A program made the translations under genes and the position numbers. From an uncultured Gammaproteobacteria bacterium (GTDB lineage: Bacteria; Patescibacteriota; Patescibacteriia; UBA9934; GWF2-40-263), in the NCBI GenBank assembly GCA_964355525.1, contig CAYHDY010000001.1, positions 1 through 53,949 of the forward strand: a stretch of DNA of 53,949 bases, given 5' to 3'. The first letter of the stretch is position 1. The number at the start of each line of letters is the position of its first letter. The notes beneath the pieces were generated by a model. It was not told the DNA's origin. It did no database searches and saw nothing but the letters and a program-made list of their open reading frames with translations. Positions 18,997 through 24,381 of this stretch are shown here, one piece after another.

Positions 18997-20142
18997 ATGA
19001 TTCCTTGGAAGATGTTTCTTGAGTGGCAGCATGATTGGCTTGAGATTGATCCGAAAGCCATCGAACGGCGAAGAACGTTTCTCAAGCAAGTTCCGTTTCT
19101 TCGACAAGTGCAGTTCAAACATGCACTTGATACAGTTCGTTTCGGTCGGCGAGCGCTTGTGAAAGATTATGCGTATGCATACGCGGCGCAACTCGCGCTT
19201 GATTCATCGGTCGCAACCACTCCGCATCGTAAGCGATTGCTTGATCTTGCCGAAACACACGAAGAAGGAGAGTTGCCGGATCGACAGCGGTGGTTCGAAT
19301 GTTTGAGTCTGTTTGATCAGGCCATCGTCATTGCGTACATCGAAGCGTATGATCCGGTGGAGACGATCAGCGCGGACATTAATCAGATGATTACATTTCT
19401 CAAAGCTCGATTGTTCGTCGGGGGATTCCGGCGAATCGAGGCGTATTCCTATCACGATCCGAAAAACGGGTATGTCGTGACGAAAGAGAATGTGTCCATT
19501 GATCGTACGCTCCATCGATTGGGACTCGACGAACGTGTAACGCCGTTCACGTGTCGACAAATCGCTGGCGATGGATTTACGTACATGGATCATCGCATCA
19601 AAGATCCGTTCGAAGTGTTTTTGAAGGTTTGTCGTCAGGTGGAAGAAGATCTACTGGAAGATCCTTTTATCATTTTCGATCGCTGCGGTCTCGTGTTTGC
19701 TGCCGAATCGTTCGATGAGATGTATCATTTTGCGAATCGTCTCACGGATGCGCTGGTGGCAGACGGAGCAGAGGTCATCTTACCGCTTCGATGGAATAAA
19801 ACGGATTCAACCATGAATCCCACGAATCGTTCCTCCTCTCCTAATTACAAGGCGGCGAAAACGTTGATCATGTGGCGCGGACGTGCGTTTGAATTCCAAT
19901 TCGTCACGATCGCGGATTTTCTGAACGGATCTCTTTCGCTCACGGATGCGAATCACGAATTGTATAAACTGCGTCAAGCGGAAACGTATTCGTTGCCGCT
20001 CCTGTGGCCGGATACTCTGTACGGGATCCGTTGGAGTGACCCGGCAATCAGTGATCGATTGCGTGTGTGCAAAGAATCACAACTCGGGTGGCGCGTGCAG
20101 CGGCAAGAAGTGAAGACGTCTGTGTTTGACGCGAATGGTTGA
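18997..20142 (+). CDS. Divergent RelA/SpoT-like (small-alarmone-synthetase fold) nucleotidyltransferase with an unknown N-terminal half
   Basis: By-eye match to SAS motifs: HRIKDPFEVFLKV (cf. HRVKSPESIKEKM), IFDRCGLVF (cf. DIAGIRV), NYKAAKTLIMW...AFEFQFVTIADFLN...NHELYK (cf. GYRSYH...VEIQIRT...FWA..H..YK). GCAGGAGG RBS. Confidence 0.45.
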   Translation: MIPWKMFLEWQHDWLEIDPKAIERRRTFLKQVPFLRQVQFKHALDTVRFGRRALVKDYAYAYAAQLALDSSVATTPHRKRLLDLAETHEEGELPDRQRWFECLSLFDQAIVIAYIEAYDPVETISADINQMITFLKARLFVGGFRRIEAYSYHDPKNGYVVTKENVSIDRTLHRLGLDERVTPFTCRQIAGDGFTYMDHRIKDPFEVFLKVCRQVEEDLLEDPFIIFDRCGLVFAAESFDEMYHFANRLTDALVADGAEVILPLRWNKTDSTMNPTNRSSSPNYKAAKTLIMWRGRAFEFQFVTIADFLNGSLSLTDANHELYKLRQAETYSLPLLWPDTLYGIRWSDPAISDRLRVCKESQLGWRVQRQEVKTSVFDANG

Positions 20143-20167
20143 CAGGAGACCATTCATCCATTATATT
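20139..20167 (+). promoter_or_regulatory. Promoter TTGACA-17-TATATT
   Basis: TTGACA at 20139-20144 overlaps the upstream stop codon. TATATT at 20162-20167. Confidence 0.45.
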
Positions 20168-20244
20168 CACCGTTGCGTTTCCGACCGTGTCGGATTCGGT
20201 CCTGTCAGATTTTCTGACGCATCTTCCACAAAGAGGCTTACAAC

Positions 20245-20730
20245 ATGCCCACCGTTCCAATGTTAATGAAGTTTTACGAGGGGTTCCATGCTCTCAGGCC
20301 CAAGGGGAAAAAGCTTTTTCTCGCGGGTCATGTCACGTTCTCCGAAGCGCAGCAGTTCTCCGCGTTTTCGAAGCCGGAGAAAAAGCGCGCGAAGACGCAG
20401 CTCCATCAGATGCATCTCCGCCGGCACAGTCCGATCTTGCGCGAACATGAGAATATCGGCGAGCCCGTGGAATCGATCTACGCGTTCGGCGAAGAACTCG
20501 ACGCCATGCCTGTGCACATCTCGCATCAGGTCCTCGAGGGGTCGATGACGCTCATCCAGGCTCGGTTCGCGAAGCAGCGTCAGTTCGGCAAGAAGCCGGT
20601 GATGGAACTCTGTCGCGCGAATGTGCCGAAGGTTCCCAACCGCGATCGCATGCGCCCCGCGTCCTCTGAAGTGTCGGTGCACGCGGTGAATGTCCGTGTC
20701 CGTCCCAGTCTCCCATCCCCGCGTCGCTGA
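20245..20730 (+). CDS. Hypothetical basic protein (161 aa)
   Basis: It has its own promoter (20139-20167) and terminator (20741-20770). The antisense 252-aa ORF is R/H-rich shadow. Confidence 0.55.
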   Translation: MPTVPMLMKFYEGFHALRPKGKKLFLAGHVTFSEAQQFSAFSKPEKKRAKTQLHQMHLRRHSPILREHENIGEPVESIYAFGEELDAMPVHISHQVLEGSMTLIQARFAKQRQFGKKPVMELCRANVPKVPNRDRMRPASSEVSVHAVNVRVRPSLPSPRR

Positions 20731-20740
20731 CGCGTCTCTG

Positions 20741-20770
20741 ACCTCTTTATCCACAAGAGGTTTTTTATTT
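20741..20770 (+). terminator. Intrinsic terminator
   Basis: acctctt-tatccac-aagaggt followed by tttttatt. Confidence 0.6.
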
Positions 20771-20776
20771 GATCTT

Positions 20777-20814
20777 TGAAATGATTTGACAATCATTTCA
20801 AGACCCGATACTCT
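20777..20814 (+). promoter_or_regulatory. Promoter TTGACA-17-TACTCT with a 24-nt palindromic operator over the -35 element
   Basis: TGAAATGATT-TGAC-AATCATTTCA (20777-20800) has perfect 10-bp arms. TTGACA at 20786-20791 and TACTCT at 20809-20814. Confidence 0.5.
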
Positions 20815-20824
20815 CAATAAAGAT

Positions 20825-20932
20825 ATGCAAACATTTTCTGCCACCACGATTACAAGTACATATACACAGATTTGGCTCTGTGTTGTTTTGTTTATGTTGC
20901 TTGCGCTCTCGGTGGTTTTTACGTGTTCATGA
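20825..20932 (+). CDS. Candidate leaderless micro-ORF, 35-aa hydrophobic peptide MQTFSATTITSTYTQIWLCVVLFMLLALSVVFTCS
   Basis: ATG lies 10 nt after the -10 element, with no SD. A single predicted TM segment. Terminator at 20962-20991. It could equally be a non-coding sRNA. Confidence 0.35.
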   Translation: MQTFSATTITSTYTQIWLCVVLFMLLALSVVFTCS

Positions 20933-20961
20933 TTGAACATTCTTTGAAAAAAGATTTTGTA

Positions 20962-20991
20962 AACCACCCTGAATTTCACGGGTGGTTTTTT
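20962..20991 (+). terminator. Intrinsic terminator of the micro-gene
   Basis: ccaccc-tgaatttcac-gggtgg followed by tttttt. Confidence 0.6.
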
Positions 20992-21004
20992 GTGAAGCTG
21001 TTTT

Positions 21005-21037
21005 TTCATGATTCGAAACACAAGATCGAATCATGAA
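21005..21037. promoter_or_regulatory. 12-bp perfect inverted repeat ttcatgattcga-N9-tcgaatcatgaa
   Basis: Seen directly in the sequence. It lies about 60 nt upstream of the ATG at 21097. It may be an operator or an RNA hairpin. Confidence 0.35.
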
Positions 21038-21096
21038 TCACTGCTTCACGACGACGTTTTCAGACGTTTGACGCAAGCCTTAACAAGGAGAATGCC

Positions 21097-22239
21097 ATGC
21101 CCTTTTCCGTTATCGCACGCACCGATCTATCTCTGCACAATCTTCATGCGATGTATCGTTCTGGCGGATCGGTTATGAAAACGCCGCATGTCGGCAACAT
21201 CTATCCCTGTAATTTGGGTGTCGCCCAGGTCGGAATCCCGATGGTATTCTATGATCGTACGTTTGGAAGTCGCGATCGCAATTTTCATCCGCACGGGGTG
21301 ATTCGCGGCGGGAAGTTTGAAGTGCTTTCTGAAGATCATTTGCTCACGACGCATGCAACGTCACAGCAAATGTCTTCTCTTGCGCCGGAATGGTTTTCTG
21401 TCGGCGCTTCGATGAAGCATGGACATATGCGTGCATTGCGCGCAGCGATTCCGGATATGGAAGGTGACCTGTACACGGATATTCTGCTCAAACAGGCAAA
21501 TGATTTGCTTCCGATGCTCGAAATCGCGTTTCGTGCGATGCCGTCTTTGTGGGAACGTGCGGTGAGTGAAGATGGGATCGTGGAATCTGTCTCGTTTGAT
21601 ACGTGGGATACACTTCTCAAGACCGGTATTTTTGGAGTGACGCATCCGAATGCGGGAGTGCTCATTCCGAACACGCTCAACATTCTCCTTCTTACCATTC
21701 TGGATGCGAAGGAGAAGGGGATTGTGGAAGCGTATCATTTGTCAGGCCCTGACATGATCACGTACATCAATCGTCTCGAGAAAGATCTACACTTTTTGTA
21801 TGACACGATTCGTTTGGCATTGTCTGATTGGCGGTTGCCGGAAACGCTTTCGTTGCACATCGTGCCGGTTGCGGACATGCGTTTTGCTGTGGTGAAGACT
21901 CGACAGAATGCACTCGATACGCTCGTGGACGCCTATCTTGCCTACACGAACAACAATCGCTTGCACGGTGAACGGATGCGAAGCGCGTCTGCGACCGATC
22001 AAGCGCGTGTAAAGTCGGAAGTCGTGCTTTTGCGACGGGCGGAGCGCGAACATCTCATCCGTGCCGTGCACGAATGCCCGGACGTGCTTTACAGCATCTA
22101 TGATCGCAACGCGCCATCGCAATATGATGTGCTCGATGCGGGCGGGTTGTATGTACATCCATGGGCCATTCACGCTCAGATGAGTGAACTCATGGCGGCG
22201 ATGCGTCAATTTGAACGCTTCGCAACCGTTTCTTTGTGA
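21097..22239 (+). CDS. Hypothetical protein (380 aa), orphan
   Basis: AAGGAG RBS 7 nt before the ATG. Balanced composition. No motif recognised. Confidence 0.6.
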   Translation: MPFSVIARTDLSLHNLHAMYRSGGSVMKTPHVGNIYPCNLGVAQVGIPMVFYDRTFGSRDRNFHPHGVIRGGKFEVLSEDHLLTTHATSQQMSSLAPEWFSVGASMKHGHMRALRAAIPDMEGDLYTDILLKQANDLLPMLEIAFRAMPSLWERAVSEDGIVESVSFDTWDTLLKTGIFGVTHPNAGVLIPNTLNILLLTILDAKEKGIVEAYHLSGPDMITYINRLEKDLHFLYDTIRLALSDWRLPETLSLHIVPVADMRFAVVKTRQNALDTLVDAYLAYTNNNRLHGERMRSASATDQARVKSEVVLLRRAEREHLIRAVHECPDVLYSIYDRNAPSQYDVLDAGGLYVHPWAIHAQMSELMAAMRQFERFATVSL

Positions 22240-22289
22240 GAGCTTGTTTGATAACAGGCAAGCTCTCACTCTTTTTTAAAAAAAAATCT

Positions 22290-23255
22290 ATGTTCATATA
22301 TTCATTTCCCATTATCGATCTGCATCAAGATCTTTTATTGCACCTGACGCGTCGGGATTTTTTTCCTGACCAATCGTTACAAACCAGTTTTGAAATGATT
22401 CAAAAAAATAATTTTAAGTTGGTGGTTTCAACAGCATTTCCGGTTCCACCAAAAGAGAATTATTTTGATCCGATTTCGAATCACATGATCGAACAAGAAT
22501 TTTTAACGTATCAACAAAAGACGATTGATGATCCATCATGGACTCTTGTTAAAACCGCACGAGACGTCGATCGTGTCTTGTCAGAGAATCAACAACATGG
22601 ACTTTTGTTGCATATTGAAGGGTTGAATGTATTTCCGGAAGATGGATTTGCAACGTTGGATCGATGGTATGACATCGGCCTGAGATCGCTTGGTATTGTT
22701 TGGAATTTGACGAATCAACTTGGCGGAGGAACAAAAGATCCATCGCAGGGACTCACAGCACTTGGGGCGGATGTGATTGAATGGTGTAAAGAAAAAAACG
22801 TCGTGACGGATTTTGCCCACATGAATGAACCGACGTTTTGGGATGTCGCGAAGCTCGTAAAAAAACCCATTTACATCAGTCATGGAAACTGCCGATCTCT
22901 TTGTGAAAGTCCGCGTAACTATTCGGACGCACAATTGCGAGCTGTTGCAGAAACAAATGGCGTCGTTGGAATGATGTTTGCAAAAACGTATGTCACAGGA
23001 AGGGAACTCACGGGAACAATTACAGACGTCATTCAACACGTTGATCATCTTGTTCAAACGATCGGTGAGGATCACATCGCTCTTGGGACAGATTTGGGTG
23101 GAGTTATTACGGGGTTTGTAACCGGACTTGAATCGATTGATAAGCTTGCTTCATTTTTCGATGCACTGCATGCACATGGATATTCTGATGCCATGATTGA
23201 AAAACTTTGTTACAAAAATGCGGCGCGCGTTATAAAAGAACATTTACCTGTATGA
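22290..23255 (+). CDS. Membrane dipeptidase (peptidase M19 family)-like
   Basis: IIDLHQDLL, LRSLGIVWN, FAHMNEPTFWD and HGNCR resemble renal-dipeptidase family blocks. Start trimmed to MFIYSFPIIDLH. Confidence 0.6.
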   Translation: MFIYSFPIIDLHQDLLLHLTRRDFFPDQSLQTSFEMIQKNNFKLVVSTAFPVPPKENYFDPISNHMIEQEFLTYQQKTIDDPSWTLVKTARDVDRVLSENQQHGLLLHIEGLNVFPEDGFATLDRWYDIGLRSLGIVWNLTNQLGGGTKDPSQGLTALGADVIEWCKEKNVVTDFAHMNEPTFWDVAKLVKKPIYISHGNCRSLCESPRNYSDAQLRAVAETNGVVGMMFAKTYVTGRELTGTITDVIQHVDHLVQTIGEDHIALGTDLGGVITGFVTGLESIDKLASFFDALHAHGYSDAMIEKLCYKNAARVIKEHLPV

Positions 23256-24013
23256 TTGGAATTTTTGACTCTGGAGTCGGAGGTTTAAACGTTGCTTCCG
23301 CGATTCGGAAACATGCACCGCGTGCAGATTTTGTGTACTTTGGAGATTTGGCAAATGCTCCGTTTGGTCCAAAATCATCCGATGAATTATTTGGAATCAC
23401 TCTTCGTGCCATGCAATTTTTGCGTGAGCAAGGTGCAGATGAAATCGTTGCAGCATGTAACAGTGTTTCCGTTTCTGTCATTCGTCCGCTCATGGATGCC
23501 TTTGGAATTCAAGGGACGAAGGTGATCGAAATGGTCGGACCGGCTGCGCGCGCTCTCGCATACCAACATCCAAAAAAGATCTTAGTGATTGCGACAGAAG
23601 CGACCGTGCGATCCGGGATGTATGAACAGACATTTCATCGTCATGCCTTGAAACCAACAATGATGGCAATTCCGGATCTTGCGAGCGCGATTGAACAGGG
23701 GAAACCTCTCACCGATATTCAACAGATGATTGCTCCGGTCGTAGATCGTATCGTCGCAGAACAATTCGACACGCTTGTGTTTGGATGTACACATTATCCG
23801 TTTGTGCGAGACGTATTTGATTCCGCACTTCTTTCTTGCGGAGTACACGTGAATTTATTTGATCCATCGGATGCGGTTGCAATGGATGTTGTTTCTTCTT
23901 TTTTTGTTCAAGGACATGGCGCACAAACATTTTTTGTTTCGAAACCATCCGATGTTTTTGATCATCATGTGCGATCTTTTTTTGGATCCTCACAATCCAT
24001 TCAGATTGTTTAA
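23252..24013 (+). CDS. murI: Glutamate racemase
   Basis: IGIFDSGVGGL, ACNSVS and FGCTHYP. ATGA overlap with the upstream gene. Confidence 0.9.
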   Translation: MIGIFDSGVGGLNVASAIRKHAPRADFVYFGDLANAPFGPKSSDELFGITLRAMQFLREQGADEIVAACNSVSVSVIRPLMDAFGIQGTKVIEMVGPAARALAYQHPKKILVIATEATVRSGMYEQTFHRHALKPTMMAIPDLASAIEQGKPLTDIQQMIAPVVDRIVAEQFDTLVFGCTHYPFVRDVFDSALLSCGVHVNLFDPSDAVAMDVVSSFFVQGHGAQTFFVSKPSDVFDHHVRSFFGSSQSIQIV

Positions 24014-24069: not shown

Positions 24070-24381
24070 ATGAACCTGAATACTCGCGATATCACCGATT
24101 TGTTTGAGACGATTCTTTCACTCGTTTCGCTTCCCGAAGCGAAAGCATTTTTTCGGGATTTGCTGACAGAAACAGAGATTCGCGAGTTTAGTCTTCGTTT
24201 TAAAGCGGCACGCATGCTCGAACTCGGCATCCCGTATGTCGAGATTCAAAAACAAACAGGATTAAGTTCAACAACCGTCGCTCGTATTTCTAAATGGCTC
24301 ACTTCCGGTATGAAAGGATATAAAATCATGATCAATCGCAGCGCACATACACACCCTTCAACCAAGAAGGTGCGGTCTTAA
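24070..24381 (+). CDS. TrpR-like YerC/YecD family DNA-binding protein
   Basis: FFRDLLTETEIREFSLRFKAARML and QKQTGLSSTTVARISKWL (HTH motif). Size 103 aa. Confidence 0.75.
   Translation: MNLNTRDITDLFETILSLVSLPEAKAFFRDLLTETEIREFSLRFKAARMLELGIPYVEIQKQTGLSSTTVARISKWLTSGMKGYKIMINRSAHTHPSTKKVRS

Follow-up and report, generated by a model that had tools for sequence, protein, structure and literature searches.

The window analysed here is a stretch of 53,949 nucleotides (nt) of DNA (contig CAYHDY010000001.1, positions 1 to 53,949 of the forward strand) from an uncultured, ultra-small Patescibacteria bacterium; the source genome is 1.03 Mb with 46% GC, and the records of its relatives are labelled Candidatus Uhrbacteria or Patescibacteria. 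A short open reading frame (ORF) of 35 codons, followed by an intrinsic terminator, lies upstream of genes for a 380-amino-acid (380-aa) orphan protein, an M19 membrane-type dipeptidase and a member of the Asp/Glu racemase family (Table 1). We propose with good confidence, from sequence comparison, that the micro-ORF and the terminator constitute a ribosome-mediated leader-peptide transcription attenuator gating this operon, and that the transcript is probably leaderless. An earlier note on this DNA had described the same unit as a self-contained, independently terminated gene for a hydrophobic peptide, with an architecture typical of type I toxins and small membrane-peptide regulators.

The leaders of relatives were gathered by synteny via the 380-aa protein, and then by scans of genome and metagenome contigs. 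Homologues of the 380-aa protein in four other genera have upstream a TTGACA-16/17-TAnnnT promoter, a short ORF, a terminator, a hairpin and a Shine-Dalgarno sequence, and the complete layout – promoter, ATG, ORF of 23–45 codons, terminator, second stem-loop, Shine-Dalgarno sequence and 380-aa homologue – is shared by approximately 37 loci spanning several Patescibacteria groups (Uhr-, Kaiser- and Campbellbacteria by their record labels, and others). An intrinsic terminator was found in 36 of the 37 leaders, and in each case the next gene after the leader is the 380-aa gene, on the same strand. The unit is therefore not self-contained as the earlier note had it: the 380-aa gene and the M19 dipeptidase gene always accompany it in the same orientation. 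A DNA search with the intergenic region in 40 relatives returned only two short chance matches, and a whole-genome scan for a promoter, short ORF and terminator in combination found only the leader locus plus two unconvincing matches.

The 3' part of the ORF and the 5' arm of the terminator co-vary across these otherwise unalignable sequences, and it is this co-variation that argues for a leader-peptide attenuator and not a type I toxin. Each ORF pairs with its own terminator 5' arm, with or without part of the loop, better than shuffled sequences do (mean z −2.96), and most ORFs rank among the best few of 36 ORFs when compared against their own terminator. The antiterminator strand lies inside the last third of the ORF and ends 3–29 nt before the ORF end. 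In a swap test with 28 loci, the own pairs sum to −480.8 kcal/mol versus −319.5 ± 14.6 kcal/mol for swapped pairs (z = −11), and no permutation out of 20,000 matched the own pairs; with reverse complements as a control, z is −0.6.

The folds predicted for the window's leader, computed as equilibrium folds with ribosome masks, fall into three states. Segment 2, in the final third of the ORF, can base-pair with AAACCACC (20961-68) in the terminator 5' arm, and its duplex with 20958-72 has an energy of −12.2 kcal/mol. In the unmasked nascent RNA, 20840-45 pairs with 20911-16 (the 1:2 pairing), enclosing the 20864-83 hairpin and leaving segment 3 free, and the terminator is predicted. With a ribosome mask ending anywhere from 20862 to 20905 the 2:3 antiterminator is predicted, corresponding to read-through, and with a mask reaching at least 20920, as for a ribosome at the stop codon, there is no antiterminator and the terminator is again predicted. 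The last two states are predicted across the family as well: of 36 loci, 35 yield the antiterminator under a stalled-ribosome mask and none does with a ribosome at the stop codon. The strong terminator that the earlier note placed at the end of the unit is present (−15.1 kcal/mol plus a T run), and in the two nearest relatives (loci L036 and L038, with 75% and 73% identity in the 380-aa protein) its arms are kept and its loop is variable.

The proposed mechanism would operate as follows. If the leader were untranslated, segments 1 and 2 would pair, the terminator would form, and transcription would stop at approximately 20991. A ribosome running unhindered to the stop codon would cover segment 2, and the terminator would form again. 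A ribosome stalled roughly within codons 3–24 would mask segment 1 and leave segment 2 free to pair with segment 3 before segment 4 is made, allowing RNA polymerase to read through into the operon. Stalling would occur within codons of the initial two thirds of the ORF, with scarcity of a charged tRNA as its probable cause.

Two further hairpins are found in the leader. The one inside the ORF, with the Trp codon in its loop, has an A-T outer pair in the window that is G-C in L036 and L038, and it may serve as a pause site for transcription, keeping ribosome and RNA polymerase in step; the hairpin and the TGTTTTGTTT that follows it (20864-20893) were flagged as terminator-like. The second stem-loop, between the terminator and the Shine-Dalgarno sequence, has a stable counterpart, with z below −2 and −4.3 on average, in 26 of 27 loci, and in close relatives its arms are conserved and its loop is variable. 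In locus L040 this element is a perfect hairpin of approximately 27 bp.

The 35-aa ORF that the earlier note read from ATG 20825 is present, and all 28 of the 28 non-redundant leader ORFs are open (P ~ 1e-21.6), with no in-frame stops, whereas the other two frames contain 46 and 23; because some loci come from related lineages and are not wholly independent of one another, these and the other P values given here are optimistic. In L036 and L038 the ORF frame is free of indels, which fall in the spacer, in loops or at the stop codon, and in one of the two the stop codon is displaced by one codon. Every family leader ORF starts with ATG, located 9–17 nt (usually 9–10 nt) after the −10 hexamer, and a strict Shine-Dalgarno sequence (GGAG or GAGG) precedes 0 of 36 leader ATGs versus 29 of 36 main genes. 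In the source genome, the ATGs of long ORFs cluster 8–13 nt downstream of strict −10 hexamers, consistent with leaderless mRNAs being used, and the transcription start site (TSS) of the window's leader is predicted approximately 4 nt before ATG 20825. The leaderless micro-gene of the earlier note is thus supported as probable, lacking a Shine-Dalgarno sequence and lying behind a conserved promoter and ahead of a strong terminator, with the difference that we take it to encode a cis-acting leader peptide. To judge by these comparisons, the reading frame is under selection for its openness, not for the peptide sequence.

These observations also bear on whether the leader might be an untranslated regulatory RNA – a riboswitch, or a protein- or tRNA-dependent antiterminator – in which a ligand sets the choice between the structures and the ORF is incidental. 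We consider this improbable: the ORF is open in every locus and the other frames are not, the position of the ATG is fixed beside the −10, the antiterminator strand is always inside the ORF and near the stop codon, and the leader is not alignable family-wide, so that there is no conserved aptamer-like core. A search of Rfam at a permissive threshold gave nothing better than E = 0.34, the best match being RcsR1 with 21 bits versus a gathering score of 60. Such an RNA would, however, suit the strong structure of the leader (the 172-nt RNA from approximately 20821 to 20992 folds with −49.9 kcal/mol; z = −4.37 versus shuffles), the nucleotide conservation of its 3' half in close relatives, which exceeds that of the ORF 5' half, the second conserved hairpin, which has no assigned role, and the lack of a clear regulatory codon run.

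The peptides themselves are of 23–45 residues and mostly unalignable. The window's peptide has a polar head and a hydrophobic stretch of approximately 17 residues, and to this extent the transmembrane peptide of the earlier note is borne out; a transmembrane-like hydrophobic stretch is, however, present in only 9 of 30 homologous leader peptides and lacking in the other 21. As for the comparison of peptide with RNA-structure conservation in relatives that the note proposed, the frame is kept open, the ORF-terminator pairing co-varies, and the peptide sequence is not conserved.

Type I toxin-antitoxin systems include hok/sok, tisB/istR and ibs/sib. The window's peptide resembles the type I toxins in being small and hydrophobic and in having a gene below annotation thresholds, and a self-contained toxin or small membrane-regulator gene, repressed via the palindrome described below and terminated alone, would account for the polar head and hydrophobic stretch, the gene's own promoter, the strong terminator, and the palindrome on the −35. 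We regard this reading as very improbable. No minus-strand promoter-like site, as an antisense RNA would need, was found by a consensus scan of 20000-21800; the unit is not independent, with same-strand linkage to the 380-aa/M19 operon in approximately 37 loci; neither the peptide, nor its hydrophobicity, nor the palindrome is conserved in relatives; the peptide has no Pfam match; and the ORF overlaps the antiterminator and co-varies with the terminator as expected of an attenuator. The type I toxin assignment of the earlier note is accordingly not retained.

A somewhat different possibility is that the ORF encodes a small protein that is functional in itself (a membrane peptide, a partner of an operon enzyme or a precursor peptide), either instead of or besides a role in cis. 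The nine loci with transmembrane-like peptides include the window's clade, and the C-terminal half of the peptide (LC.V.FMLL...VVFTCS) is kept in the window, L036 and L038. These conserved C-terminal codons coincide, though, with RNA elements, namely the internal hairpin, segment 2 and a stop-codon hairpin; most of the family's peptides are not hydrophobic, their length and sequence vary widely, and the lineages described below, in which the 380-aa gene follows a prolyl-tRNA synthetase-like gene, are without any small ORF. A function of the peptide itself is therefore quite unlikely, notwithstanding the precedent of a trans-acting leader peptide, peTrpL of Sinorhizobium (PMC7298713). The more specific proposal of a precursor of a ribosomally synthesized and post-translationally modified peptide was dropped, given the ORF-terminator co-variation and the synthetase-linked loci without an ORF. 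Finally, the terminated transcript of approximately 170 nt might act in trans as a small RNA, which would be compatible with attenuation. It is stable and structured and ends in a terminator, and rnTrpL of Sinorhizobium is a precedent (PMC6614838); with no target known and no nucleotide conservation found outside close relatives, we give this little credence.

Returning to the attenuator, the amino acid that it would sense, where our case is at its weakest, can be approached through codon content. The leader peptides contain more Trp, His, Tyr and Phe than the proteome, and less Asp and Glu. At codons −7 to −3 before the antiterminator strand, where a stalled ribosome would just clear segment 2 in the model, 14 of 28 loci have Tyr, against 7.4 expected, and 10 of the 28 have Trp, against 5.0 expected, with P = 0.009 for each. 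In the window these five codons specify Val, Leu, Phe, Met and Leu. Six Thr codons lie among codons 3–14 of the window's ORF, in a stretch that overlaps segment 1 and continues beyond it, with Tyr at codon 13 and Trp at codon 17 (TGG 20873-75). The two close relatives have Trp at codon 22, 4–5 codons before segment 2. The stall signal would likely be a shortage of charged tRNA, with the six Thr codons, Tyr13 and Trp17 as the window's candidates, and our best guess as to the sensed amino acid is Thr in the window and Tyr/Trp across the family. The logic would be that a symbiont that scavenges amino acids turns on a dipeptidase operon when translation starves.

A number of observations weigh against the attenuator reading, to which the optimism of the P values is to be added. 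The excess of aromatic residues and His is modest and in part compositional (TGG is found 25 times in frame 0 versus 16 and 19 times in the others), and no run of a single amino acid is common to the family. Tyr13 and Trp17 of the window sit 15 and 11 codons before segment 2, outside the −7 to −3 interval. The leader's −10 hexamer is weak, TACTCT matching the consensus at 3 of 6 positions. Of the two competing structures the terminator is the more stable at equilibrium (−15.1 kcal/mol, versus −12.2 kcal/mol for the antiterminator), so read-through would rest on co-transcriptional kinetics. The anti-antiterminator 1:2 pairing is predicted in only approximately 10 of 36 loci, and most members therefore look like two-state switches, which in the model would read through unless a ribosome translates to the end.

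The TTGACA-17-TACTCT promoter described in the earlier note is present where it was placed, and both hexamers are kept in position in the nearest relatives and in approximately 33 other loci: L036 and L038 have TTGACA-16/17-TAC(T/G)CT, and the family form is TTGAC(A/G/C/T)-16/18-TAnnnT. A consensus promoter scan did not list it because of the 3/6 match of its −10. The upstream 161-aa gene has its own terminator at 20740-20770, and a new transcription unit thus plausibly begins at the leader promoter.

The 10+10 inverted repeat TGAAATGATT-TGAC-AATCATTTCA noted earlier at 20777-20800 is confirmed, and as it extends by one base on each side it is a perfect 11+11 repeat. Perfect inverted repeats with arms of 10 bases or more and a spacer no longer than 8 number 266 in the genome, versus approximately 7 in block shuffles; approximately 110 of them are terminator-like and 64 are AT-rich, and most look like terminators. 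The palindrome at the −35 is real, and its chance occurrence at that spot is unlikely. There is no second copy in the 1.03-Mb genome with up to 3 mismatches, except for one chance 3-mismatch site inside a coding region, and half-site counts are at chance level. The palindrome is absent from L036 and L038, whose promoters otherwise align, and from 35 other leaders. Of the palindromic operator proposed in the earlier note, then, the repeat and its overlap with the −35 stand, but it is neither conserved in the promoters of relatives nor repeated elsewhere in the genome. A role as an operator in this genome is possible, and the palindrome may add repressor control there only; tight repression through it, as had been suggested, is a guess. 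The candidates for a cognate binder are a Trp-repressor/YerC-like (TrpR/YerC-like) protein encoded approximately 3 kb downstream (24070-24381) and the 161-aa basic protein encoded upstream (20245-20730). The promoter of the TrpR/YerC-like gene itself shares only a 7-mer with the palindrome. This promoter is TTGACT-17-TATCCT, with the gene's ATG 7 nt after it; no gene was found at the matching position in the syntenic contigs L035-L038.

The 380-aa, M19 dipeptidase and racemase genes likely form an operon, with racemase last. The M19 gene comes after the 380-aa gene in every locus checked, seven of them in other genomes (L005-L008, L035, L036 and L038), and the gene order including racemase is identical in L035-L038. 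Neither the 380-aa gene nor the M19 dipeptidase gene was found in the seven same-genus genomes searched (G001-G007), and four other genera have both. Taken with the leader, the two genes thus behave as an accessory cassette.

Table 1. Positions, in window coordinates, of the leader elements, the operon genes and their neighbours.
Feature	Positions	Strand	Details
161-aa basic protein gene	20245-20730		Upstream of leader
Intrinsic terminator of upstream 161-aa gene	20740-20770	+	Hairpin GACCTCTT/AAGAGGTT, then T run (consensus scan)
Perfect 11+11 inverted repeat	20776-20801		TTGAAATGATT-TGAC-AATCATTTCAA; centred on −35; candidate operator, lineage-specific
Leader promoter	20786-20814	+	TTGACA (20786-20791), 17-nt spacer, TACTCT (20809-20814); read in sequence
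Leader ORF, 35 codons	20825-20932	+	Peptide MQTFSATTITSTYTQIWLCVVLFMLLALSVVFTCS; ATG 20825, TGA 20930-20932; ATG 10 nt after −10, without Shine-Dalgarno
Segment 1 (anti-antiterminator)	20840-20845	+	GCCACC, codons 6-7; minimum-free-energy folds; 1:2 duplex −10.8 kcal/mol
Hairpin inside ORF	20864-20883	+	ACACAGA-TTTGGC-TCTGTGT; U-rich tract after; Trp codon in loop
Segment 2 (antiterminator 5' strand)	20911-20918	+	GGTGGTTT, codons 29-32; ends 12 nt before stop codon
Intrinsic terminator (attenuator)	20961-20991	+	Segment 3 AAACCACCC (20961-69), 10-nt loop, segment 4 GGGTGGTTT (20980-88), T run to 20991
Second stem-loop	20994-21047	+	Without T run; core arms TTCATGATTCGA (21005-16) and TCGAATCATGAA (21026-37); conserved leader part
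Shine-Dalgarno and 380-aa orphan gene	21085-22239	+	AAGGAG (21085-90), ATG 21097; gene itself 21097-22239; first regulated gene
M19 membrane-type dipeptidase gene	22236-23255	+	PF01244, E = 8e-72; start overlaps 380-aa gene stop
Asp/Glu racemase family gene	23252-24013	+	PF01177, E = 2.7e-14; start overlaps dipeptidase stop
Trp-repressor/YerC-like gene	24070-24381		PF01371, E = 9e-17

The 380-aa protein, which contains 5 Trp, has 79 homologues, found only in Patescibacteria. Searches of Pfam and NCBIfam found no match to it, and scanning the family members one by one against Pfam produced no consistent assignment. An AlphaFold2 model is of very high confidence, with a predicted local distance difference test score (pLDDT) of 95.6 and a predicted template modelling score (pTM) of 0.91; Foldseek found no PDB match at E < 1e-3, its best matches being ArgRS and pantothenate synthetase with E ~0.1 and a template modelling score of approximately 0.2, and a PDB profile search also found nothing. 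The invariant residues of the family include His31, Gly33, Asp53, Asp60, His110 and Ser-Gly-Pro-Asp-Met at 216-220, and a PHVGN sequence sits after a beta strand, like the HIGH motif. A synthetase-like fold was considered and is not established, as hhalign against the genome's two PF00579 (TrpRS/TyrRS-family) synthetases aligned only 8–13 residues (PHVGN/LHIGN) with a probability below 1%.

In a second group of approximately 12 loci (L014, L016, L025, L043-L045, L048, L056, L061, L066, L067 and L069) the 380-aa homologue begins a few bases after a proS-like gene, an archaeal-type prolyl-tRNA synthetase-like gene as judged by eye from the frame ending just upstream. No promoter, leader or small ORF was found in the loci of this group. 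The position of the 380-aa gene behind a prolyl-tRNA synthetase-like gene suggests a link to translation or aminoacylation.

A fuller picture can be drawn, which we offer as speculative and rather unlikely to hold in all its parts: a sensor of amino-acid charging (Tyr/Trp family-wide; Thr, Tyr and Trp here) would be coupled to an undescribed amino-acid salvage module of ultra-small symbionts, in which the 380-aa orphan would be an enzyme of novel or strongly diverged fold working alongside the M19 dipeptidase and the racemase, and to a lineage-specific repressor acting on the palindrome, possibly the TrpR/YerC-like protein. If true, a bacterium that makes no amino acids would combine repressor and attenuator in the way the E. 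coli trp operon does.

Routine annotation would leave the leader empty, and on first reading it was taken for a toxin; on the attenuator reading it would be a switch that governs the expression of an otherwise unreadable operon. It would also offer a functional handle on an orphan protein family confined to Patescibacteria, whose expression would be tied to translation stress or amino-acid supply. The approximately 37 loci and their strong co-variation give good support to the view that classical attenuation through ribosome sensing operates in ultra-small uncultured bacteria on transcripts without a Shine-Dalgarno sequence. The attenuation mechanism itself is textbook, and the surprise to a specialist is moderate. 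A full-text literature search for Patescibacteria with leader peptides found passing mentions only, and no report of such attenuation for the phylum.

The classical leader-peptide attenuators of amino-acid operons in Proteobacteria include E. coli thrL, trpL, hisL and pheL. The leader in the window is like them in having a leader ORF and then an intrinsic terminator before the first structural gene, and in its mutually exclusive 1:2, 2:3 and 3:4 pairings with segment 2 inside or near the ORF end; like thrL, it has a Thr-rich stretch with Ile. It differs from them in that the ORF has no Shine-Dalgarno sequence and lies approximately 3–4 nt from the predicted TSS, in that the family shares no tandem single-amino-acid run and most of its members have no predicted 1:2 pairing, and in that the genes concerned encode a dipeptidase, a racemase and an orphan protein instead of the enzymes of a biosynthetic pathway. 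The Rfam leader models have no match to the window's leader.

Term-seq reportedly revealed antibiotic-responsive ribosome-stalling attenuators controlling resistance genes such as ABC-F and erm (Dar et al. 2016, Science). Nothing at the window's locus suggests a resistance function, but the arrangement of upstream ORF, antiterminator and terminator is the same, and any stall in the ORF would lead to read-through, as in the two-state members of the family.

Parallels in leader use are also found in the Actinobacteria. Leaderless, attenuating polycysteine short ORFs are documented in mycobacteria (bioRxiv 10.1101/834739), and in Corynebacterium there are leader peptides of trpE, leuA, ilvB and aroF, possibly with transcription attenuation (PMC3890552). 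The mycobacterial short ORFs carry obvious Cys runs and the Patescibacteria leaders carry none, the phylum differs, and the output of the Cys ORFs is translational, through the unmasking of a ribosome-binding site, whereas that of the window's leader is an intrinsic terminator. In these systems, as in the window, the operon opens with a regulatory short ORF as its first cistron; in mycobacteria the mRNAs concerned are leaderless, and a ribosome stalled at hungry codons alters the structure of the downstream RNA, as we propose for the leader described here.

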